DNA of 64,000 nt, from positions 67,264 through 131,263 of the forward strand of contig JBEPZV010000004.1 in assembly GCA_041640655.1 (NCBI GenBank), written 5' to 3'. The notes under the pieces were generated by a model, which saw only the letters and a list, made by a program, of their open reading frames with translations, was not told where the DNA came from and ran no database searches. Below, piece by piece: positions 1 to 29,068 of this stretch (positions are counted from its first letter, which is position 1; each line of letters begins with the position of its first letter). The DNA comes from a bacterium (GTDB lineage: Bacteria; Acidobacteriota; Blastocatellia; HR10). Position numbers and translations under genes: made by a program.

Positions 1-2126
1 AGATTGTTCCGATCCGGATGCACGAGCGTGCGCGAGAAGAGCCCTCGCCCCTTCGGCGCCGGCTGGATCGGCGGGAAAGGATTCGGCGCCGCCGTGATCA
101 ATCCCCCGCGCCCGCCATTGGCCGAGGGATCGAAGTTCGTCGTCAGGTCCTGCCGCTCGATGAATGGCGTGAAGTACTCATAGCGCACGCCGTAGGTGAG
201 CGTGAGCTTCGGAGTCGCGCGCCAGCTGTCCTGGGCATACCACATGAACCCATCAATGTAGTTGTGCACGACATGTGGGGTCGTCGTCTGCTGGAAGAAC
301 GCCTGTCCGAGCAAAAGGTTCGCGAAGCTGTCGCCGATCCAGAACGTGTTGAACGCCAGCTCGCCATGGGGCGCGCGCACGTCGAGGAAGTTGTTCACGA
401 GCCGCTTGTACTCGACGCCGAATTTGTACGCGTGAGCCCCGCGGATGTAGGAGACGTTGTCGAGGAACTGATAGACCTGCGAGACCTGGAATTGCGGGCG
501 CCAGCCGGAGGTCCCCAGGAAGCTGTAGCCCACGACGCGAATCCAGGGCAGTCCGTAGACGAACTCGTTATTGGGCGCGTTCTTGAGCCCGAACTCGGCC
601 GCCGCACTCCCTTTCGGCGCGAGCGGTCGGGACCAGCTCTTGATCCGATTGAACCCGAAACGGAAGTCATTGAGCAGGTTCGGGGAGAACGTGTGATCCC
701 ACGTGACGGAGAGCACTTGACCGCGCACCTCGCTGTTGGCGCTGAACCCACCCGTGGCCAGTGGGTTCGGGAACGGACCGCGCTCGATCATCGCGCGCTC
801 GTCGAAGAAGTCGTAGACCCCGAAGATCAGGTCCTTCTCTCCGATCCGATGGTCGAGGCGCGCATCGAAGGAGTCGTTGTTCGTCGGGATATTGATCGAC
901 GAGACGAACGTGAACGGCGAGATGCCCGGCGCATTCGGCAGCGGGTAGAGCGCGGCGAGCTTCATCCCGACCGGGTCGGCGCAGGGACGGCCATCCGTGC
1001 GCATGGCATTCAGGTTGAGGCGATTGGGCGGTGAGACGCAGGGCGCGATGACCGAGAGGAAATCCGGTGGGGCCGTCAGAACCGGGCGCTCGCTGAAATC
1101 CCCTTGACGCATCTTCGCCGTGGGCACCGTGCCCGTCAGCGTCGTCTCCCGTCGCGAGCGCAGGCCCTGGTAGTCGAAGAACCAGAAGGTGCGATCCCGA
1201 CGGATCGGGCCGCCAATGGCGAACCCCGCTTGGTTGCGGAGGAATTCACCCTTCGGGATCACGCGCGAGCCATCGGGACGCCGTCCCGCTGCGTTGGAGA
1301 AGAAATCCGCCGCGTCCAGATCATCGTTGCGATGGAACCACCACGCCGTCCCATGCACGGTGTTGCTGCCGGAGCGAATCTCGGCGTTGATGACTGCCCC
1401 CTGGAACCAGCCGAATTCGGCATTGTAGGTGCGCGTCTGCACGCGAAATTCCCGAAGCGCGTCCGGAGGAGGCTGCACGACCTGCGGACTGCGCTCTTGT
1501 GCGTTGGTCGAGAACGAGTTGTTGTCCACGCCATTCAACGCGAAGTAATTTTGGAGCGAGAAGTTCCCGTTCACGTTGATCTTCGCCTCACGGGGATTGC
1601 CGCCGCTTGGCGTCGGCACGGCTCCCGGAGCGAGCAGGATCAAATCCGAGTATCGCCGCCCATCGAGCGGCAGATCCACGATCCGTCGCTGCTCGACAAC
1701 GGCCCCCACATCAGCGCTCTGCGTTTGCAGAATCGGGACCGTCTCGGTGATGACCAGCTCCTCCGTGATCATCCCTGGCTGCAGCGTCACATCCACGCGC
1801 AAGCGCTCTTGAACATGGAGGATGATGTTGCTGCGAATGGCAGTTTGGAATCCGGGAGCGGTGACCCGAAGCTCATATGGCCCCGGCTGAAGCGCCGGCG
1901 CGATGTAGGAGCCGGTCGCATCCGTCGTGACCTTCACGCTCGTCCGCAGCTCCTGATGCGTGATCGTCACCTCCGCGTTCGGGATCACGGCTCCGGTGGG
2001 ATCCATGACCGTTCCGAGGATCGTCCCCGTGTTGATCTGAGCGCGCGCCCCGTGAGGGCAGTGCAGCAGCACCATCACGGTGAGCGCAAGGATCGCGCCG
2101 TATCTCATCCATGTGCTTCCTCTCAT
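1..2126 (-). CDS. TonB-dependent receptor with N-terminal carboxypeptidase regulatory-like domain (3' end outside window)
   Basis: Translated by hand, since it is absent from the ORF track: MRGSTWMRYGAILALTVMVLLHCPHGARAQINTGTILGTVMDPTGAVIPNAEVT...IVDLPLDGRRYSDLILLAPG...DALREFRVQT...NQAGFAIGGPIRRDRTFWF. Signal peptide and GGAGGTG RBS present. Confidence 0.9.
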   Translation of the reverse strand, partial: MRGSTWMRYGAILALTVMVLLHCPHGARAQINTGTILGTVMDPTGAVIPNAEVTITHQELRTSVKVTTDATGSYIAPALQPGPYELRVTAPGFQTAIRSNIILHVQERLRVDVTLQPGMITEELVITETVPILQTQSADVGAVVEQRRIVDLPLDGRRYSDLILLAPGAVPTPSGGNPREAKINVNGNFSLQNYFALNGVDNNSFSTNAQERSPQVVQPPPDALREFRVQTRTYNAEFGWFQGAVINAEIRSGSNTVHGTAWWFHRNDDLDAADFFSNAAGRRPDGSRVIPKGEFLRNQAGFAIGGPIRRDRTFWFFDYQGLRSRRETTLTGTVPTAKMRQGDFSERPVLTAPPDFLSVIAPCVSPPNRLNLNAMRTDGRPCADPVGMKLAALYPLPNAPGISPFTFVSSINIPTNNDSFDARLDHRIGEKDLIFGVYDFFDERAMIERGPFPNPLATGGFSANSEVRGQVLSVTWDHTFSPNLLNDFRFGFNRIKSWSRPLAPKGSAAAEFGLKNAPNNEFVYGLPWIRVVGYSFLGTSGWRPQFQVSQVYQFLDNVSYIRGAHAYKFGVEYKRLVNNFLDVRAPHGELAFNTFWIGDSFANLLLGQAFFQQTTTPHVVHNYIDGFMWYAQDSWRATPKLTLTYGVRYEYFTPFIERQDLTTNFDPSANGGRGGLITAAPNPFPPIQPAPKGRGLFSRTLVHPDRNN

Positions 2127-2188
2127 GGCTCTCACCTCCACTGCTTCGTTCCTCCCGCCATGTCGTGCGGGGATCTCGGAACGCCCCC

Positions 2189-4081
2189 TCAGCGCCGGGC
2201 GTTCGGTGGGGGACAGGTCGCGAGGAAGAACCGTTCGCGCTTCCTCGCCTCCTCGTACTGCGCGCGCGCACGGCGCACCGCGTCCATCTCGGAGACCTCG
2301 GCCACGGGCACGTCCCACCACGATTCGTAGCCGGGGACGCGCACCTCTTTGTCCACCTCGACGACGATGACGGTCGTGCGCGCCTGCTGCCGGGCCTCCT
2401 CCAGGGCGCGCTCGAGATCGTCGCGCGTTCGGGCGCGAAGCGCGTGCGCGCCAAGGCTCGCGGCGTTCGCGGCGAAGTCCACTGGGATCCAGTCTCCATC
2501 CAGCTGTCCGGTCTGCGGATTGCGGAAGCGATAGTCCGTTCCGAACCCCCCTGAGCCGATGGACTGCGAGAGCCCGCCGATGCTGCTGAAGCCGTGATTG
2601 TCGAGCACGAGGATCACGAGCTTGTATCCCTCCTGCAGCGAGGTCACGATCTCCGAAGACATCATCAGGTACGAGCCGTCGCCCACCAGGACGTAGACCT
2701 CGCGCGAGGGGTCAGCCATCTTCACGCCCAGTCCACCGGCGATCTCGTAGCCCATACAGGAGTAGCCGTATTCGAGGTGATACCCCTTCGGATCGCGCGT
2801 GCGCCAGAGCTTATGCAGATCGCCCGGAAGGCTGCCAGCTGCGCAGACGACGACATCGCGCGGACCGACGAAACGGTTGAGAATACCGATGACCTCGCTC
2901 TGCGCCATCGGCGGACCATGATGGAGATCGAAGAGGCGCTCGACTTCGGCCTCCCATTCCGCCTTCAGCCGCGCGATCTCCTCCGCATACTCCGCCGAGA
3001 CGCGATGGCCCGCGAGCGCTTCCCGCAATTCCTCCAGCGTGAGGCGCGCATCGGCCACCAGCGGCCACGCAGCCTGTTTGTACGCATCCATCTCGGCCAC
3101 GTTGATCGTGATGAAGCGCACATCGGGATGTTGGAATGCCGTCTTTGAGGCCGTGGGGAAATCGCCCAGGCGCGTGCCGATGGCGATGATCAGGTCCGCC
3201 TCGCGGGCGATCACATTGGCCGCGCGCGTCCCCGTCACGCCGATGGCGCCGAGGTTCTGCGGATGGTCGAAGGGGAGCGAGCCCTTCCCCGCCTGGGTCT
3301 CGGCCACAGGAATCCCCGTTTGCTCGACGAAGCGCGCCAGCGCCTCGGTCGCTTCGCTGTAGATGACCCCGCCGCCGGCAATCACCAGCGGCCGTCGTGC
3401 TACGCGAATCCACGCGACGGCGCGGCGCAACCGTTCCCGATCGGCCGGAGGGCGGGGGATGTGCCAGACGCGCTTCTCGAACAACTCTTCCGGGTAGTCC
3501 CAAGCTTCCGTCTGTACATCCTGCGGGAGCGCGAGCGTCACCGCGCCCGTATCGGCTGGCGAGGTCAAGACGCGCATCGCTTCCAACAGCGCGAAGGGGA
3601 GCTGATCCGGTCGGGTGAGGCGATCCCAGTAGCGGGAGACCGGTCGGAAGGCGTCGTTCACCGAGATGTCTTGCGTGTGCTCGGATTCCAGCTGCTGCAG
3701 CACGGGCGCGACGTTCCGGCGGGCGAAGATGTCCCCAGGCAGCAGCAACACAGGCAATCGGTTGATCGTGGCCGTCGCCGCTCCCGTGACCATGTTCGTC
3801 GCTCCCGGACCGATCGAGGACGTGCAGGCGAAGGTCCGCAGCCGATTGTGCATCTTGGCGAAGGCCACAGCGATGTGCACCATCGCTTGTTCGTTACGCG
3901 GCAGATAGTAGGGGAAGTCGGGGTTCTGCTGGAGCGCCTGGCCGATCCCCGCCACATTCCCGTGTCCGAAGATCCCCCACACCCCGGCGAAGAAGGGGAT
4001 CTCACGCCCGTCGCGTTCCACATACTGGTTCTTCAAGAACGCAATAAGCGCTTGCGCCATCGTCAATCGCCGCCTTCTCAT
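2189..4081 (-). CDS. iolD: 3D-(3,5/4)-trihydroxycyclohexane-1,2-dione acylhydrolase
   Basis: RLTMAQAL, GIFGHGNVAG, SIGPGATN, EYGYSCMGYE and TPP-binding GDGS motifs. Confidence 0.95.
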   Translation of the reverse strand: MRRRRLTMAQALIAFLKNQYVERDGREIPFFAGVWGIFGHGNVAGIGQALQQNPDFPYYLPRNEQAMVHIAVAFAKMHNRLRTFACTSSIGPGATNMVTGAATATINRLPVLLLPGDIFARRNVAPVLQQLESEHTQDISVNDAFRPVSRYWDRLTRPDQLPFALLEAMRVLTSPADTGAVTLALPQDVQTEAWDYPEELFEKRVWHIPRPPADRERLRRAVAWIRVARRPLVIAGGGVIYSEATEALARFVEQTGIPVAETQAGKGSLPFDHPQNLGAIGVTGTRAANVIAREADLIIAIGTRLGDFPTASKTAFQHPDVRFITINVAEMDAYKQAAWPLVADARLTLEELREALAGHRVSAEYAEEIARLKAEWEAEVERLFDLHHGPPMAQSEVIGILNRFVGPRDVVVCAAGSLPGDLHKLWRTRDPKGYHLEYGYSCMGYEIAGGLGVKMADPSREVYVLVGDGSYLMMSSEIVTSLQEGYKLVILVLDNHGFSSIGGLSQSIGSGGFGTDYRFRNPQTGQLDGDWIPVDFAANAASLGAHALRARTRDDLERALEEARQQARTTVIVVEVDKEVRVPGYESWWDVPVAEVSEMDAVRRARAQYEEARKRERFFLATCPPPNARR

Positions 4082-4134
4082 CGTCGGTGCCCTCCTTTCG
4101 CGCGATCGCCTCCGACGTCCGCGCCACGAGGCGC

Positions 4135-5148
4135 CTACAATCCCCCGCGCGCTTGGATGAATGAGAGGACTTCGGCTTCGTACGGCATGAAGTTCGCGCA
4201 GCCGTGGCGCGTGACGACGATCGCGCCGCAGGCATTACCCATGCGCGCCGCCCGATACCAGTCCCATCCCTTCAGATAGCCGTAGAGGAATCCGGCCGCG
4301 AAGGCATCGCCAGCCCCCAGGACATTGAGGACCTCGACGGGGAAGGCGGGCGCCGTGATCACTTCTCCGTGGGGCAGATGAACGGTCGCGCCCTCGGCCC
4401 CTCGTTTCACGACGAGCGCTCGCGGGCCGCGCTCCAGAAGCAGGCGAATGGCGTGGTCCAATTCGCCCGCGACGCGGGATTCGGAGACCTGCGCGTGCTC
4501 GATGTGGACCTCTCCGGCCTCCGCGAGAGCGGCCGCCTTCACCTCATCGGCCGTTCCGAGCACGACATCCACAAGCGGCAGCGCCAGGCGGATCGTCACC
4601 CCATAGGCCCGCACATCGTGCCAGAGCGGGGGGCGGAAATCCAGATCGAGAAAGACACGCACATCGTGGGCGCGCGCGCGCTCGGCGGCCAAGAGCGTCG
4701 CGCTGCGGCTCGGCTCTCGGCTGAGCCCCGTCCCGCTGATGAGCAAGACGCGACACTCGGGGATCGGCGCGGCGAGCACATCGTCAATGTCCAGTTCCAT
4801 GTCGGCGCAGTTGTCGCGATAGTAGACCAGCGGGAAGCGATCCGGCGGCTCCACGCCGAGCAGGACAGCGCTCGTCCGACGCCCCGGCTTTCGCGGGATG
4901 AACCGCGTCTCCACACCCTCCCGTTCCAGGAACCGCAGGACGAAATCGCCCACGAGATCGTCGCCGACGGCTGTGAGCAGCACCGCGCGCAAGCCCAATC
5001 GTCGCGCGCCCACACTGATGTTCGTCGGACACCCCCCCACATAGGCGGCGAAGCTGGTGATCTCCGGAAACGGCGCGCCGATGTCCGCCGCGTAGAGGTC
5101 AATCGAGCTGCGGCCCATGGCGAGGAGATCGTATTGCCGTTGGGGCAT
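4135..5148 (-). CDS. iolC: 5-dehydro-2-deoxygluconokinase (PfkB family)
   Basis: GRSSIDLY, YVGGCPTN, DLDFRP, NVLGAGDAF; GAGGAGGAG RBS before ATG 5148; iol context. Confidence 0.93.
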   Translation of the reverse strand: MPQRQYDLLAMGRSSIDLYAADIGAPFPEITSFAAYVGGCPTNISVGARRLGLRAVLLTAVGDDLVGDFVLRFLEREGVETRFIPRKPGRRTSAVLLGVEPPDRFPLVYYRDNCADMELDIDDVLAAPIPECRVLLISGTGLSREPSRSATLLAAERARAHDVRVFLDLDFRPPLWHDVRAYGVTIRLALPLVDVVLGTADEVKAAALAEAGEVHIEHAQVSESRVAGELDHAIRLLLERGPRALVVKRGAEGATVHLPHGEVITAPAFPVEVLNVLGAGDAFAAGFLYGYLKGWDWYRAARMGNACGAIVVTRHGCANFMPYEAEVLSFIQARGGL

Positions 5149-5174
5149 CCGCTCCTCCTCAATGTGCGCCCTGC

Positions 5175-6026
5175 TCATCGCACGAGCGGGACGCGCGGAT
5201 CTTTCTCCGTCCATGTCGCGCGCACCCACGCGTGCGCCGGATCATCGGACGCCGCCATCGAGCGCGCGCTCCCGGCCAGAGCGTTCAAGTAGTACACGTT
5301 GTAGCCGTGCGCCGCGACGACCGGATGATACCCCTCCGGGATCAGCACCAGATCCCCATCCTGAACGGTGAGAGTCACGTCCAACCGGCGATCCGGCGTG
5401 TAGATGCGTTGAATCGCGTACCCCTCCGGGCGATCCACCTTGTAATAGTAGATCTCCTCCAGGTCCACTTCGTCCGGCGGATTGTGGACATCGTGCTTGT
5501 GCGGGGGATAGCTCGACCAGTTCCCGCTGGGCGTGTAGACCTCGACGAGCATCAGGCGATCGGCGGGGAAATCCGGTGGGAGGATGTGATTGATCTGCCG
5601 CGTGGCATTCCCCCCGCCCCGAATCTCGATCGAGACGTCTTCTGGGCGGATCAGCCGAGCGGGGAACATGCGCTCGGCGCGCGCTCGACAGAAGGCGAGT
5701 TCGCCCTCGGTCTCGGCCGTGATGGTGTAGGACGTGCCGATGGGGAGATACAGAGCGGTCGGCAAGCCATCGAACACGTGTGCACGCGAGCCGATGTGAG
5801 ACCACGAACCCGCCGAAGAGTGAATCGTGAAGCGCCCGCCCAAGAGCACAATCCCCAGCTCGTCCCGCCCCGTCTCTCCCGAGACGGTCTCTCCAGCGGC
5901 CATGGCTCGAACGGCGAAGCCCAGATACTCGAAGCCCACGACCTCCGGCGTGATGGAGATGCGCTCGCCCGCCCCTCCATCGGAGGGGCGCGACCGGATC
6001 AGAAGCTCATGAGTACGCGACAGCAT
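5175..6026 (-). CDS. iolB: 5-deoxy-glucuronate isomerase
   Basis: EVYTPSGNWSSYPPHKHD, LEEIYYY, GYHPV motifs. Confidence 0.95.
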   Translation of the reverse strand: MLSRTHELLIRSRPSDGGAGERISITPEVVGFEYLGFAVRAMAAGETVSGETGRDELGIVLLGGRFTIHSSAGSWSHIGSRAHVFDGLPTALYLPIGTSYTITAETEGELAFCRARAERMFPARLIRPEDVSIEIRGGGNATRQINHILPPDFPADRLMLVEVYTPSGNWSSYPPHKHDVHNPPDEVDLEEIYYYKVDRPEGYAIQRIYTPDRRLDVTLTVQDGDLVLIPEGYHPVVAAHGYNVYYLNALAGSARSMAASDDPAHAWVRATWTEKDPRVPLVR

Positions 6027-23990: not shown

Positions 23991-24329
23991 ATGATGAGGC
24001 GACAGAAAGCGCGAAAAAGGCCCATGCCGCTTGTTGAGGCGATCGTGGGACTGCCGTTCTACACGCGGGAGGAGTTTCGAAAGCAGGTGCAATATGCGGA
24101 GGACAGTCTCGGCTGCGAGAGTTATGAGCAGTGGGTTCGCGCGCATCACGAGTTGAAGCGGAGGCTGGAGGCGCTGGGCGTCGTCGTGGTCGAGGTCCCG
24201 ATCAACGTCGAGGAGATGCAGCAGTACTTCCTGCAGTACGGACTCCGAAACGATGCGGCGAATCGCAGCCAGTATGTCGCCCGAAAGCTCTTCGAGCGAC
24301 GCGATCTCGTGTCGCTCGTTCGTCGGTGA
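23991..24329 (+). CDS. Small hypothetical protein
   Basis: 112-aa ORF with normal composition, downstream of a promoter. Confidence 0.65.
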   Translation: MMRRQKARKRPMPLVEAIVGLPFYTREEFRKQVQYAEDSLGCESYEQWVRAHHELKRRLEALGVVVVEVPINVEEMQQYFLQYGLRNDAANRSQYVARKLFERRDLVSLVRR

Positions 24330-24339
24330 GCCCATCGCG

Positions 24340-25416
24340 ATGTGGAGAGACGGCCCACGTGCGTTCGCCGTTGGGAAGCTCCCGCCGGACGTCCTTCAGC
24401 GCGCGCTCGCCACAATCCCCATTGAGGACAAACGGGTGAGAATCGGGCCACGACTGGGTGAGGATGCGGCCGCGATCGCCTTCGACGACGTCTATCTCGT
24501 CGCGAAGACCGATCCGATCACGTTCGCCACCGAGCGCATTGGGTGGTACGCCGTGCACATCAATGCGAACGACGTGGCCGTCATGGGCGCGCGACCGCGG
24601 TGGTTCCTCGCCGCGCTGTTGCTGCCGGAAGGGAAGACGGACGCGGCGCTCGTGGACCACATCTTCCAGGACATCCTGAGCGCGTGCCGTGAGCTGGGGA
24701 TCACGCTCTGCGGCGGGCATACGGAGATCACCTATGGGTTGGATCGCCCTGTGGTCGTCGGCCACATGCTCGGCGAAGTGCCTCGGGAAAAGCTCGTCGA
24801 GAAACGGATGGAGCCGGGGGATCGCATTCTGCTGACCAAGGGCATCGCTATTGAGGGGACGGCGATTCTGGCGCGAGAGAGAGCGTCGGAGCTGGCCTCC
24901 GTGTGCGAGGCCGGGCTTCTGGAGCGCGCTCGGCGCTTGCTCTTTGATCCGGGCATCAGCGTGGTGCGCGAGGCGCTCCGAGCGGTCGAGGTCGCGCGCG
25001 TGCATGCCATGCATGATCCGACCGAAGGGGGACTAGTCGGCGGTCTCTGCGAGCTGGCGGCCGCCGGCGGGGTCGGCCTGCAGATCTGGCGGGATCGCAT
25101 TCCTCTCCGGCCGGAGACCGATGTCCTCTGTCGCCACCTTGGGCTGGACCCGCTGCGGCTCATCGCCTCGGGGGCGCTCCTCATCGTCGCGCCGCCCGAT
25201 CAGTGTGCGAGGATCGAAGACGCCTTGCGATCAGAAGGCATCGAGGTGGCCGAGATCGGGGAAGTGCGAGAGCGCGCGTATGGGCTTAAACTCGAGGTGG
25301 AAGGGGAGCCTGTCGAACTGACCTTCCCCGAACGCGATGAGATCGCGCGCGTTTTCGAAACCATCCCTTCCGAGCCCCACGGTGAGGAAGGGCATTCCTC
25401 CACGCATGAGCCATGA
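24340..25416 (+). CDS. AIR synthase family (HypE/ThiL-like) protein
   Basis: GKLP, GEDAA, NANDVAVMGA, GGHTE, MHDPTEGG; start uncertain. Confidence 0.85.
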   Translation: MWRDGPRAFAVGKLPPDVLQRALATIPIEDKRVRIGPRLGEDAAAIAFDDVYLVAKTDPITFATERIGWYAVHINANDVAVMGARPRWFLAALLLPEGKTDAALVDHIFQDILSACRELGITLCGGHTEITYGLDRPVVVGHMLGEVPREKLVEKRMEPGDRILLTKGIAIEGTAILARERASELASVCEAGLLERARRLLFDPGISVVREALRAVEVARVHAMHDPTEGGLVGGLCELAAAGGVGLQIWRDRIPLRPETDVLCRHLGLDPLRLIASGALLIVAPPDQCARIEDALRSEGIEVAEIGEVRERAYGLKLEVEGEPVELTFPERDEIARVFETIPSEPHGEEGHSSTHEP

Positions 25417-26294
25417 ATCGCCGGGTGTATCCTCTTGTCCTGCGGGAGCGCGCACTGGAGCTTGGCGCGCGCACGTTGATCATGGGCATCCTCAATGTGA
25501 CGCCCGATTCGTTCTCGGATGGAGGCGAATTCTTCTCAGTAGAGCGAGCAGTGGCTCGCGCTCTGGAGATCGAAGCTGAGGGAGCGGATCTGCTGGACAT
25601 CGGCGGGGAATCCACGCGCCCCGGAGCGAAACCGGTTCCTCTTGAGGAAGAGCTGCGCCGCGTCCTTCCCGTCATCGAGCGCCTGCAGGGGCGCCTCCGC
25701 ATCCCCATCTCCGTGGATACGACTAAGTATGAAGTCGCGCGCGCGGCTTTGGAAGCCGGAGTCGCGATGCTTAACGATGTGAGTGGGCTCCGGCGCGATG
25801 CACGGCTGGCCGATTTGGCAGCTGAATTCGGCGCCGCTCTCGTCCTCATGCACTCGCGAGGGACGCCTGAGACGATGCAAGACCTGCCTCCGAGTCCGGA
25901 TATCTTGGGGGAGATCGCCGAGCATTTCGCTTGGGCTCTGGCCCGCGCTCTCGCGCGCGGCGTGGCCCCGGAACAGATCGTGCTTGATCCCGGGCTCGGC
26001 TTCGGCAAGACCATCGAGGATAATCTGCTCATCCTGAATCGGCTCGACCGCTTCGCCGAATTCGGGCGTCCGTTGCTCGTCGGCCCTTCGCGCAAATCCT
26101 TCATCGGTCATATCACGGGGAGAGAACCTCGCGAACGCGTCTTCGGCACGGCAGCGGCCGTCGTCGCCGCCATCTTCAGAGGGGCGCACATCGTCCGTGT
26201 TCATGACGTGCGCCAGATGCGCGATGTCGTCCGCGTCGCCGATGCGATCCTTCGCGCCGGAGAAGCCGAAGCCTCGCGCCAGCCGATATTCTGA
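25413..26294 (+). CDS. folP: Dihydropteroate synthase
   Basis: MGILNVTPDSFSDGG, GGESTRPG, DPGLGFGK, SRKSFI, RVHDV. Confidence 0.96.
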   Translation: MNRRVYPLVLRERALELGARTLIMGILNVTPDSFSDGGEFFSVERAVARALEIEAEGADLLDIGGESTRPGAKPVPLEEELRRVLPVIERLQGRLRIPISVDTTKYEVARAALEAGVAMLNDVSGLRRDARLADLAAEFGAALVLMHSRGTPETMQDLPPSPDILGEIAEHFAWALARALARGVAPEQIVLDPGLGFGKTIEDNLLILNRLDRFAEFGRPLLVGPSRKSFIGHITGREPRERVFGTAAAVVAAIFRGAHIVRVHDVRQMRDVVRVADAILRAGEAEASRQPIF

Positions 26295-26388
26295 GGAGCC
26301 GTGGTCCTCAGTAGGCCGCCCGTCCTTGCGCCCGGGGAATACGCGGGGCCGTGTACGGGAACTCCCCACCGTCACGAAGGAGGAATGA

Positions 26389-26472
26389 GTACGGGCGGGT
26401 GCGTTTGGACGCCCGGTGGGTGGATTGGGAGGTAAAGGAGGATGGGGCATGTTAGGAGGTACCCGCCCGTAC
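26389..26472. repeat. REP-like inverted doublet
   Basis: GTACGGGCGGGT ... ACCCGCCCGTAC (12 bp perfect); each arm has an internal GGGCG..YGCCC palindrome. Confidence 0.55.
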
Positions 26473-26499
26473 GATTCGCCGTCAGGGTGGAGCTTGGCC

Positions 26500-27381
26500 A
26501 AAAGGAATGGGAGGCCGGTTGCTGCTCGAAGGAGGAAGCTACTGTCGCCACCTCAGCATGAGAGCTTCTCGCGAAACTGCAGCATTCACCGGCACTCCCT
26601 CCCTCCGCTCGGACCTCTTGCCTCAGGCCGTCCGAGTCGATCGGGAAAGGAAGGCTGAGAAGATGGCCCTGCCATCGGCCACCACATGAGCCCGCACATG
26701 GAGAATCAGTCACATCCGCCGCCGCTCGGAGAGGAGCACGTGATCGCAGCGCGCGCGCCCGCCCGTGCGTTCGGACTCGCTTCCGCAAATGTCGCTTCCT
26801 GAAAGCACCGCCGCCGGAGAGGGAAGCCAGCGCCTGATCTGCCGCTTGACCGAAGACGATGGCAGGGCCAATCCTGGTAAGGAGGGTGGAGCACGATTCG
26901 ACGAGAATAGAAGAAACATGCCGCAGCTCGGCCCGCCTTCGGTCCGCTGGAGCCATCACCGCCGATGCTGCGAGCTTGACCTCCGCATCTGCGCCCACTC
27001 CGCTGCGAGCCATCACTCTCGCTTGAGCATCCGAAGGAACATCAGACACATAGCGCCGGAACCCGAACTGCCACATCCGCTGCATCTGGCATCTGAGCTG
27101 AGCTCCCACCGCTGCCGGTACCCACTCTTGAACCTTCCGCTTCATCCGATCACCCGAATCAGGCAAAGCTGCGGCAATTCCGTCAGGCCCATCCAAAGGC
27201 ACTAGGTGCAAGACCTTGTGGACTTCGCGGACGCCATTCTGCAGCTCGCTCTCGAGCCCAATCGCCCATTTGCTCTTTCCGCTCAAGCCTTGCATCACCT
27301 CTGCGCCTCCAGAGGGGCCACTCGATATTCCGTTGCGCCTCTCGCCCGCCCGCCGTCTCAAAGATCGCCTTGCCGACGGTC
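26500..27381 (-). ncRNA. Candidate large structured non-coding RNA (unclassified)
   Basis: Strong upstream promoter; long-range perfect helices (14 bp 26664-26677/26857-26870; 10 bp 26919-26928/27167-27176); terminal multi-stem followed by TTTT. Confidence 0.35.
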
Positions 27382-27387
27382 GCGCAT

Positions 27388-27416
27388 GTTATAGCACGAG
27401 TCCGGCAGAAAGTCAA
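27388..27416 (-). promoter_or_regulatory. sigma70 promoter with extended -10
   Basis: TTGACT-N17-TATAAC with TGn immediately before the -10. Confidence 0.7.
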
Positions 27417-27706
27417 GAAAAAAGTTCAAGTAATTTCTCAACTCTGCCCGACTAAGGCATGGCGAATTAAGGACTAATATCGAGGACGACCATAACCCTT
27501 TCCCCTGCTACGACTTAACGATGCTTGAAGCCTGTCTGAAACCTGCCGGCCCCACAGGGCAGGTTCATCCAGATGCAGATCTCAAGAAGTGGGACCCAGG
27601 CCGGAAGGGAGCGAGCTCGGGCCAGATGCTCAGCTTATCTTCGCTCAGATCAATAGCTTGCAGTAAGAGCGTCATGAGGACCCCTCGCTTGATCTCCTGC
27701 TGTTGC

Positions 27707-29068
27707 CTAGCGGCCAAGATAGAGAAAGACCTGACCGGCTCTTCGCGAAGCGCCCGGTGCTCCTACGGCCAGATCAGGTTTCCCGTCCCTATTGAGATCA
27801 CCGATGGCCATAGCCGTGCCAAATTCTGCACCGGCCTCCGGGCTCGGCGGTTCAAGGATGAAGTTGGGGTTCGGACCGATGGCAGGTCCCCCGTAGAAGA
27901 GGTACACTCGTCCGGCCCTTTGGCGATTGCCGACTGTCGCTCCGATGGCGCTGACGGCGAGATCGGCCGTACCGTCACCGTTGAGGTCGCCGACAGCCAG
28001 TGCGTATCCGAATGCCGAAGTGGCTTGTGGATCAAGCTCTTGCAGGATGAGGTCGGGCGCGCTGTTTAGAGTGGGGCCGCCGAAGTAGATGTAGACTCGT
28101 CCCGGTCGGGATTCTGTGGGGTCACCTTCACTTGTATTCGGTGATCCCACGATGGCGTCTGCGTACCCATCGCCGTTGATGTCGGCCACGGCGAGGGAGG
28201 AGGCGAATGTGGGATCGGCGACTTCCGGGTTTGCCGGAGGGTGAGGATTAGGCAGCATCACATTTGGCCGGCCGCTCAGAGACTTTCCACCGAGGAAGAT
28301 GTATACGACTCCGGCTCCATTCGGTCCTCCGAATGGAGCGCCGATGAGAATGTCGGCGAATCCATCTTTATTGATGTCTCCGGCGGCCACGGCGAAGCCG
28401 AATTGCTCTCCGACAATACCCCCCCGCAAGATGGTCCGTCGCGACCCGATCGTATTTCCTCCGTACAGAACGACGACGGTGTCCATGAGCCAAGCGCCGA
28501 CGATCAAGTCGCTCGTCCCATCGCCGTCCACGTCACCGCTGGCCAGGGGCTCGCCGAAGCGGCCACCTATCAAGAAGTCAGGATCCGGCGGAAGCGGGCT
28601 CCGCACGGTCGTTGAGTTCGCTCCGAAGTTTGAGGCTCCACGATAGATGATGACTCTCCCATCCAAGAGGGATTCTTCGCTATTGCTGGCCTCGGGGGCG
28701 CCGACGGCCAGATCAGTCCGGCCATCTCTGGTCCAATCGCTGGCGGCGAGTGCGAACCCGAAACCGATTCCCGCCTCGCGGGTGGACAACGTCACGTTGG
28801 GCGTCCGTTGAAGCGTCTGACGCCCGTAGAAGATGAAGACTCGTTCAGCGCGGTTTTCCAATGTGCAGGGAGCTGAGACCGCCAGGTCCGAGGTCTTATC
28901 GTTGTTGAAATCTCCGACGGCCAAGGCCCAACCGAAGCAAGCGTCGGCGACAGGCCGTGACTCGGTCAGGACAAGGGGCTGTGGTTGAAAAGGGGAAGAC
29001 TGCGCGAGCATCGTGCTGCTAATGAGCAATAGCCCAATCATGAACCGGCGGACGATCTGTCCCTTCAT
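27707..29068 (-). CDS. Secreted FG-GAP repeat (integrin-alpha beta-propeller) protein
   Basis: Signal peptide; seven FG..(G)DxNxDGxxDLAVGAP repeats; GGAGG RBS. Confidence 0.92.
   Translation of the reverse strand: MKGQIVRRFMIGLLLISSTMLAQSSPFQPQPLVLTESRPVADACFGWALAVGDFNNDKTSDLAVSAPCTLENRAERVFIFYGRQTLQRTPNVTLSTREAGIGFGFALAASDWTRDGRTDLAVGAPEASNSEESLLDGRVIIYRGASNFGANSTTVRSPLPPDPDFLIGGRFGEPLASGDVDGDGTSDLIVGAWLMDTVVVLYGGNTIGSRRTILRGGIVGEQFGFAVAAGDINKDGFADILIGAPFGGPNGAGVVYIFLGGKSLSGRPNVMLPNPHPPANPEVADPTFASSLAVADINGDGYADAIVGSPNTSEGDPTESRPGRVYIYFGGPTLNSAPDLILQELDPQATSAFGYALAVGDLNGDGTADLAVSAIGATVGNRQRAGRVYLFYGGPAIGPNPNFILEPPSPEAGAEFGTAMAIGDLNRDGKPDLAVGAPGASRRAGQVFLYLGR

Follow-up and report, generated by a model that had tools for sequence, protein, structure and literature searches.

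A large structured RNA with an open reading frame maintained without amino-acid constraint in hot-spring Acidobacteriota

What does a 1.4-kb gap between two protein-coding genes encode: a protein, an RNA, or both? The question is raised by the interval between folP and a gene for an FG-GAP repeat protein in a 64,000-nucleotide (nt) stretch of acidobacterial DNA, hereafter the window, which lies on contig C4 (JBEPZV010000004.1) of genome G000 (GCA_041640655.1; 3.1 Mb in 128 contigs). An earlier note, made from the letters of the window, had described about 0.9 kb of the minus strand of this gap as a candidate large non-coding RNA and had set aside the overlapping open reading frame (ORF). Analysis of homologues revealed a conserved, promoter-driven RNA of about 1 kb whose domains are closed by long-range helices, as the note proposed, but the description as a plain non-coding RNA does not hold, because an ORF within it has been kept open by selection. 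The gene for this ~1.0-kb RNA runs from ~27381 to ~26372, convergent with folP; positions are those of the window, and features lie on its minus strand unless stated otherwise. The RNA represents a new family of large structured RNAs without an Rfam family, and our literature searches found no description of it.

The helices on which the earlier note relied are all present: a perfect 10-bp helix formed by 27176-27167 (TGCCGCAGCT) and 26928-26919 (AGCTGCGGCA), a perfect 14-bp helix formed by 26870-26857 (TGGCCCTGCCATCG) and 26677-26664 (CGATGGCAGGGCCA), and a 7-bp helix formed by 26636-26630 (CTCGGAC) and 26614-26608 (GTCCGAG). The nested multi-stem towards the 3' end (stems at 26607-26499, corresponding to RNAalifold helices 22–24) and the two direct repeats, GTGATGGCTC(G)CAGCGGA and CCTCTCCG..GGCGGCGG, each found twice, were recovered as well. 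In first-order Markov simulations of the 997-nt RNA (n = 500), a perfect inverted repeat of at least 14 nt arose in 3/500 sequences and one of at least 10 nt in 281/500; the 14-bp helix is therefore unusual alone, whereas the 10-bp and 7-bp helices gain weight only from their conservation.

RNAalifold, applied to nine sequences, predicted 176 pairs in 27 helices, with 93.8% of the alignment cells of these pairs able to pair. Changes on both sides of a pair were found in 41 of the 176 pairs, compared with 20.7 ± 3.2 in shuffled alignments (0/500 reached 41) and 11–20 in slid controls, with the reservation that the structure was predicted from the same alignment as was used for these counts, which consequently lean towards structure. 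Covariation, which the note had named as a check of its proposal, thus exceeds both kinds of control. In the sister-genus sequence G007, which was held out of the structure alignment, 83 of 144 pairs were canonical versus 53–57 of 141–143 when the sequence was slid, and the 3' hairpin kept 17 of its 18 pairs. These results establish a structured RNA with covariation-supported long-range helices.

Individual helices differ in how they express this support, and the conserved islands of the otherwise variable sequence are the arms of the long-range ones. Helices 3 and 4 (27351-27335/26901-26884) join segments ~450 nt apart through 12 mostly invariant pairs, with 98.6–100% of cells paired; the second family that carries the element (f2, from the same small order as f1, the family of G000) has an analogous pairing of its 5' region with +475 nt and long-range complementary arms of its own. 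Helix 5 (27319-27305/27200-27186) has 15 pairs, three of them changed on both sides, and 95.6% of cells paired. The helix 6 domain (27176-27155/26941-26919; 20 pairs) extends the 10-bp helix, is paired in 100% of cells with two pairs changed on both sides, keeps 14 of 16 pairs in G007, and encloses the covarying hairpins 7, 8, and 11 (6, 6, and 4 pairs changed on both sides, respectively). The helix 12 domain (26874-26858/26676-26661; 16 pairs), which is the 14-bp helix, encloses helices 13–19; 99.3% of its cells are paired, and G007 keeps 11 of 16 pairs with the compensatory arms GGUCCUGCC/GGCAGGACC. Hairpin 20–21 (the 7-bp helix) and the nested stems 22–24 follow at 26499-26636, a region in which pair 879-940 is AU in four sequences and GC in four.

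At gathering thresholds, no part of the 64-kb window matched any family of Rfam 15, whose covered families include OLE, GOLLD, ROOL, HEARO, raiA, RsaE, tmRNA, RNase P, and 6S. At permissive E-values, 25500-28500 gave only three chance-level matches to eukaryotic families (13–20 bits against thresholds of 40–50), and ARAGORN found no tRNA or tmRNA. The description of the RNA as a large non-coding RNA in the size class of OLE, GOLLD, and ROOL, suggested in the note, is incomplete given the selected ORF.

The ORF occupies 26372-27298 and comprises ~307–308 codons, counted from ATG or GTG, with a TGA stop at 26374-26372. A putative ribosome-binding site lies at 27293-27310 (GGAGG at 27310-27306, GTG at 27298-27296, and ATG at 27295-27293). 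Dismissal of this ORF proved mistaken: the frame is open in 12/12 homologues, usually with a ribosome-binding site, even though the bodies of the f1 and f2 sequences cannot be aligned with each other. In 10/10 f1 sequences, a single sense frame with 0–4 stops was open for 285–336 codons, while the other sense and the antisense frames usually contained 4–16 stops (one antisense frame of locus L006 had only one). The two f2 sequences each have one frame open for 393–398 codons and 11–18 stops in the remaining frames.

Base composition does not account for these lengths. Simulated sequences of the same composition had a mean longest ORF of 118–153 codons and attained the observed length in 0–6 of 1000 trials per sequence. 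When only the bases that differ from the window were permuted, a mean of 4.5–6.8 in-frame stops appeared, and just 0–23 of 2000 permutations were free of stops for the homologues that have diverged (n = 7); L034, at 97% identity, gives no information here (1357/2000 without a stop). The spacing between islands had 6, 4, and 8 different lengths; of the 15 differences, 14 are divisible by three, the sole out-of-phase one being that of L006, which is offset further downstream. GGAGG was followed after 6–9 nt by an in-frame ATG or GTG in eight of nine distinct sequence types of the genus, and of the two adjacent start codons, the other is a start whenever one is not.

Openness and phase are conserved, but the encoded amino acids are not, so that codon-type conservation, which the note would have taken as evidence against an RNA, is present in one respect and absent in the other. 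Mismatches were spread evenly over the codon positions (e.g., 119/124/122 in f1 and 52/52/54 in f2), with no third-position excess. The ratio of nonsynonymous to synonymous divergence (dN/dS) was 0.47–1.03 in frame versus 0.47–1.24 out of frame in f1, and 0.69 in frame versus 0.73 and 0.85 out of frame in f2, whereas in the same comparisons of diverged genomes folP gave 0.08–0.13 (0.36 with the near-identical L034). With a codon model trained on the 33 long ORFs of the window, the ORF scored a log-odds of 0.00 against 0.358 ± 0.150 for those ORFs, ~2.4 standard deviations lower. Its G+C fractions at codon positions 1/2/3 are 0.67/0.57/0.63, with the third position not raised, compared with 0.70–0.74/0.44–0.47/0.71–0.78 in folP, aspA, and the ORF at 24253-25416. 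The note had seen no recognisable motif in the ORF, and Pfam (E up to 0.1) likewise returned no match for its conceptual protein; 5.8 billion protein clusters yielded just eight relatives, all unnamed or 'hypothetical'. AlphaFold2 gave a mean predicted local distance difference test score (pLDDT) of 38.3 and a predicted template-modelling score (pTM) of 0.14 on a shallow alignment of nine sequences, which limits the test. The frame is thus maintained without amino-acid constraint, and it is presumably translated, to judge from its sequence.

The most serious competitor is an ordinary gene for a fast-evolving, probably disordered lineage-specific protein, in which the helices and the 3' hairpin would be regulatory or stabilising features of the mRNA. 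Such a gene would account for the 12/12 open frames, the in-phase length changes, and the ribosome-binding site in 8/9 sequence types; gene callers do annotate 'hypothetical protein' in public records (8 matches), and a fold no more stable than that of shuffled sequences is common for mRNAs. Coding selection should nevertheless have left some trace in the third codon positions, the codon score, or dN/dS, which in this frame equals the out-of-frame controls while folP stands at ~0.1. Furthermore, the conceptual proteins of f1 and f2 show no similarity (best E 0.09) despite a conserved promoter, the conserved motifs show no variation even at synonymous sites and complement one another, and the most conserved ~110 nt, the invariant 3' domain, are read in two different frames among species. 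Together with the lack of a Pfam match and the low pLDDT, this makes a protein gene improbable in our estimation, though it deserves to be kept in view.

Conservation along the locus falls into three layers: an upstream block with the promoter (27480-27388), conserved even between f1 and f2; a variable body with islands; and a near-invariant 3' domain. Islands excepted, the RNA body is 59–84% identical within the genus, whereas identity in the 3' domain (~26497-26385) reaches 96–100% among members of the genus and 89% with the sister-genus sequence G007. For scale, 16S rRNAs of the genus share 98.5–98.9% identity, the sister genus stands at 94.5%, 49–61% of synonymous sites differ in folP, and 39–46% of sites differ in the RNA body in any frame, which is close to neutral. 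Because its identities are near those of 16S rRNA while the body is near neutral, the 3' domain evolves like rRNA. The conserved unit runs ~120 nt beyond the end given in the note, to ~26385, and the TTTT that the note took as the end (26506-26503) sits in the 3' arm of the conserved helix 22 (26507-26499/26607-26599); a terminator scan of the region found no terminator-like site.

At the other end, the promoter is present exactly as the note described it: TTGACT at 27416-27411, a 17-nt spacer, and TATAAC at 27393-27388 with the TG of an extended -10 at 27396-27395 (27416-27388 in all), placing the predicted transcription start near 27381. A consensus scan missed it because the scan demands T at the last -10 position. 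CTTGAC[AT]-N17-TATAA occurs in 14/14 full-length loci (10 distinct sequences), 877–1152 nt upstream of the 3' motif, and the f2 promoter is TTGACA-N17-TACTAT. Directly upstream lies a conserved block (27417-27480; ATATTAGTCC..TTAGTC..GAGTTGAGAAATTACTTGAACTTTTTT) that is the best conserved stretch between f1 and f2 (~82% over 45–51 nt) and whose core pattern, searched in 401 genomes of the class, was present as a single copy in 8 of them; it is probably a regulatory or UP-like region. TTAGTC occurs twice in this block (27477-27472 and 27455-27450), 22 nt apart, followed by the hexamers TTGAGA, TTGAAC, and TTGACT, and the repeats look like transcription-factor operator sites or an UP element.

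The transcript would begin with a 5' hairpin (helix 2, 27353-27379; CCGUC/GACGG) that is paired in 96.7% of cells, has one pair changed on both sides, and encloses a boxA-like sequence, GAUCUUUGAGAC, at 27366-27355. This sequence, partly paired in helix 2, agrees with the boxA core of the genome's own rRNA operon, GAUGUUUGAAAA(C), at 9 of 12 ungapped positions, and we treat the resemblance as a lead only. As a reference for promoters of this lineage, the rRNA operon of G000 (L040, G000:C3) has TTGACA-N17-TATAAT with TGTG before the -10, an A/T-rich upstream tract, and the boxA CUGAUGUUUGAAAACUAG.

A purely non-coding large RNA, in which the open frame would be incidental to composition or ancestry and ribosomes would never read it, is the account given in the note. 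The covarying helices and the absence of amino-acid constraint are what it predicts, GGAGG is paired in helix 5, simulated sequences already reach mean longest ORFs of 118–153 codons, and the boxA-like leader is of the kind that, according to PMC4807359, protects untranslated rRNA from the transcription terminator Rho. Chance matches the observed ORF length far too seldom for this account, however, and neutral divergence should have introduced 4.5–6.8 stops per lineage. It also leaves unexplained why one of three sense frames is spared, why all but one of the length changes are in phase, why loss of a start codon is matched by an adjacent start, and why f2 shows the same frame property in a body that cannot be aligned with that of f1. 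We therefore regard it as quite unlikely.

Since translation appears to be selected and the peptide does not, translation can be read as a device acting in cis, and we consider the chances about even that the structured RNA is the selected product and that translation serves it. Under this reading, the ~1.0-kb minus-strand RNA, with its body organised by long-range helices, would itself be the product, and the near-invariant, C-rich 3' hairpin domain would be its likely working part. Ribosomes trailing RNA polymerase would keep Rho, and probably RNases, off the transcript, so that the 3' domain is made; the G>C composition of the body and the boxA-like leader may help to shield it. Ribosome traffic would also control when the 3' domain becomes accessible, given that the frame passes through it in f1 and stops at it in f2. 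Selection against nonsense codons in a translated RNA would be expected from Rho polarity (background in PMC4807359, PMC12360218, and PMC13323073).

The 3' domain (26385-26497) consists of a 12-bp stem (26472-26461/26400-26389) and a 6-bp stem (26450-26445/26414-26409) with C-rich, nearly G-free loops. CCUCC occurs at 26459-26455, 26441-26437, and 26432-26428, within ACCUCCU (26460-26454) and ACCUCC (26433-26428) for the first and last of these, and a fourth copy lies at 26383-26379. The 16S rRNA of G000 ends in ..GGAUCACCUCCUUU, its tail being written ..CACCUCCUUU, and CCUCCUUU at 26441-26434 is the same 8-mer as in this tail, so that the domain carries what defines a mimic of the anti-Shine-Dalgarno (anti-SD) sequence, namely a sequence identical to the core of the organism's own 16S tail. 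The exposed single-stranded CCUCC loops could pair with G-rich sequences of the Shine-Dalgarno (SD) type or bind a factor that recognises the anti-SD tail of 16S rRNA; G000 also encodes the ribosomal protein bS21. On the opposite strand (26416-26658, plus), the complement of the domain gives three strong SD-like sequences, GGGAGGU, AAGGAGGAU, and UAGGAGGUA, after which an ATG or GTG opens an 80-amino-acid ORF; these are probably a mirror effect of CCUCC, although plus-strand folP transcripts would carry them.

The last 135 nt have a C fraction of 0.42–0.45 and a G fraction of 0.17–0.18, compared with 0.26 and 0.35 in the RNA body, and in genus g1 the 3' end shows an excess of +18 to +32 C over G per 80 nt. 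A C-rich, G-poor tract of at least ~80 nt in a genome that encodes Rho is what a Rho loading site calls for, and both are found here. The composition makes a predicted Rho site plausible, and such a site could end the transcript before antisense entry into folP. Genes with the Rho RNA-binding domain occur at G000:C9:8467-8688 (L053) and G000:C2:182111-182332, in ORFs of 442 and 485 amino acids. Two Rho paralogues are unusual in a 3.1-Mb genome and may be relevant to Rho-based regulation at this locus. The 3' end of f2 is built differently: its UGA stop immediately precedes CCCUCCUCC, which is followed by a terminator, GGGAGGGC..GCCCUCCC-U7, and the first terminator arm, GGGAGGGC, could alternatively pair with the CCCUCC of CCCUCCUCC. 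Between this terminator and thiE, the f2 locus L051 (G010:C74, minus strand, 4473-5340) has ~870 nt without a long ORF.

Evidence for a transcript comes from RNA libraries. Six hot-spring RNA libraries contain 6–7% of the words of the region, and in four of these, contigs from a relative extend over the islands as well as the promoter-proximal part and the 3' domain. These unstranded contigs show that the locus is represented in RNA libraries and hint at abundance, no more. Parts left uncovered are uninformative, as these runs contain a relative whose sequence matches at the conserved islands only.

The family is restricted to a small order of uncultured thermophilic Acidobacteriota from hot springs. 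A BLAST search with the 1401-nt region matched 9 of 41 genomes (G000 and 40 relatives), comprising, besides G000, 6 of the 7 other f1 genomes and 2 of the 3 f2 genomes, the latter in the promoter region only. Of the 401 class genomes searched, 8 contained the promoter pattern, each in one copy, and all 8 belong to this order; the element is single-copy within G000, and the sequencing runs that contain the DNA are mostly hot-spring metagenomes. Scans with 20-nt motifs added the metagenomic versions L030, L032, L033, and L036 and several near-duplicates. Loci L026, L027, L029, L031, and L037 from these scans (1/5 genome loci and 4/11 metagenome loci) were chance matches in unrelated sequence and were excluded from all counts, as was a 22-nt match to the 3' domain (E 0.008) elsewhere in G010. 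Within the genus, only the species G003 gave no match; folP was not found there either, so this part of its genome has probably not been assembled, and G003 was not counted as an absence.

In f1, the flanking genes, FG-GAP (27707-29068) on one side and folP (25413-26294, plus strand; Pterin_bind, E 4e-84) on the other, are constant wherever the available DNA reached them. The f2 neighbours differ (short-chain dehydrogenase, Glu/Leu dehydrogenase, and thiE), and no reverse transcriptase, recombinase, or other partner gene accompanies the element among the neighbours in either family. Upstream of folP, a 387-amino-acid ORF (24253-25416, plus strand) overlaps the folP start by four bases (ATGA), which suggests that the two are translationally coupled. 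Contigs C103 and C81 of G002 (L002/L010) break inside the element and overlap by ~90 nt, contig C156 of G005 (L003) ends within it, and the RNA-library contigs likewise break at the borders of conserved islands; these breaks suggest strain-level heterogeneity of the variable segments within populations. A mobile element was rejected on the grounds of the single copy and the fixed f1 synteny, and a gene on the antisense strand with a shadow ORF was rejected because in most homologues each plus-strand frame is interrupted by 4–10 stops.

In every f1 locus the element and folP converge, which raises the possibility that the strong promoter drives transcription into the folP 3' end and that the element tunes this antisense RNA or interference. 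No intrinsic terminator stands between the element and folP, and unstranded contigs from the RNA libraries connect the 3' domain with the end of folP. We nonetheless judge such a regulator very improbable: the f2 element has a canonical terminator and does not lie beside folP, conservation stops at ~26385, before folP is reached, and the helices and the open frame would go unexplained. The idea that the inverted repeats act in DNA as shufflon- or inverton-type invertible segments can be dismissed as scarcely credible. Two perfect inverted-repeat pairs (10–20 bp) do flank segments of ~200–250 bp within the open frame. Inverting either segment in silico, however, gave a shorter ORF in 9 of 10 sequences, every assembly has the same orientation, the f1 and f2 loci have no neighbouring recombinase gene, and many smaller nested hairpins covary.

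Several observations count against an RNA product served by translation. The single-sequence minimum free energy of -427.9 kcal/mol does not stand out from the shuffle mean of -440.8 (z = +1.54): 18 of 20 shuffles folded at least as stably, and the antisense strand gave z = +1.33. The shared alignment behind structure and covariation counts has been mentioned, and in a simple alignment of G007 the 5' helices 3–5 were not recovered (5/12 and 7/15 pairs). Helix 5 sequesters GGAGG in its 5' arm, L032 has no start codon at the conserved site, and the boxA resemblance, 9/12 at best, is weak in f2. The RNA evidence consists of unstranded contigs of a relative and gives neither strand nor ends; one contig of high depth extends past the predicted start by ~90 nt, to 27472, for which reason a candidate second promoter, TTAAGT-N18-TATGGT at 27520-27482, was considered, which is not conserved in f2. 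In two libraries, separate short contigs over the 5' and middle parts had word depths of 2048–4373, while contigs joining island I4, the 3' domain, and the folP end had depths of 56–156 (56–208 over all contigs that connect the 3' part with folP), so that the 3' domain is represented at lower depth, contig word depth being unsuited to ranking the parts of a gene. Conservation of every base is not normal for Rho loading sites, and a Rho role would therefore fail to explain the near-invariance of the 3' domain. Finally, 10–12 sequences still leave room for a disordered, fast-evolving protein.

If the structured RNA is nevertheless the product, comparison with known systems shows both kinship and distance. 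Like OLE (RF01071), GOLLD, and ROOL, it is a large, multi-domain, lineage-restricted RNA of extremophiles with long-range helices, and it stands alone rather than being the leader of a downstream gene. Unlike them, it has no sequence or structure match in Rfam 15 and comes from a different phylum, and at ~1.0–1.25 kb it is longer than OLE (~600 nt). The main difference is the selected open frame with a ribosome-binding site, a feature that, to our knowledge, has not been described for any of the three. Other large ornate RNAs have been reported to form homo-oligomers (PMC12286853). According to PMC12054373, OLE carries a CCUCCU anti-SD mimic that binds bS21. The present RNA resembles it in having three or four CCUCC motifs, one of them within its own 16S-tail 8-mer, but the OLE mimic is paired with an SD-like strand, whereas the motifs here are predicted to be single-stranded.

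Among RNAs with two functions, RNAIII/hld and SgrS/SgrT are 200–500 nt long and encode short conserved peptides. A single transcript would, as in those cases, be translated and also act as RNA; in this element, however, almost the entire 1-kb RNA lies within the frame, and the encoded amino acids are unconstrained. RoxS/RsaE of Bacillota are ~100-nt RNAs with their own promoter and terminator whose C-rich loops pair with SD regions, and the conserved, predicted unpaired C-rich loop motifs on stable stems, complementary to GGAGG-type sites, are similar, although here they form the 3' domain of a 1-kb RNA with an open frame and have no Rfam match.

An rRNA-style strong promoter and the boxA-like GAUCUUUGAGAC leader recall rRNA operons with boxA and Nus factors, and the change from a body richer in G than in C to a G-poor 3' end with C in excess would fit a system subject to Rho polarity; unlike the usual Rho loading site, the 3' domain is near-invariant, and f2 has an intrinsic terminator instead. 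In trp-type attenuators the leader peptide has ~15 codons. A ribosome terminating in f2 could similarly choose between two hairpins (CCCUCCUCC/GGGAGGGC versus the terminator), but the f2 'leader' has 393–398 codons, thiE lies ~870 nt away, and f1 has no U-tract terminator.

A more far-reaching proposal, which we advance tentatively, is that the element founds a new class of bacterial riboregulator, long and structured, whose protein-irrelevant frame is a track for ribosomes, its ~300–400 meaningless codons shielding the transcript from Rho and gating an rRNA-like, near-invariant, anti-SD-mimicking 3' domain, so that the RNA would report or tune translation capacity. In this proposal, translation itself, the part played by Rho, and the function of the 3' domain are all inferred.

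Few large structured RNAs of unknown function have been found in bacteria, and every new class has proved informative. The present family offers a natural case in which a long frame is held open and in phase while selection ignores its amino acids. Because gene finders call such loci 'hypothetical protein' and RNA finders discard them as coding, both may systematically miss similar loci. The restriction of the family to an uncultured hot-spring order limits immediate experiments, but its 3' domain, which repeats the anti-SD core of 16S rRNA, links the RNA to the finding that OLE binds bS21. If translation is indeed a device acting in cis, as a Rho shield or a gate, the locus would give direct access to the interplay of transcription–translation coupling, Rho, and RNA function in these bacteria.

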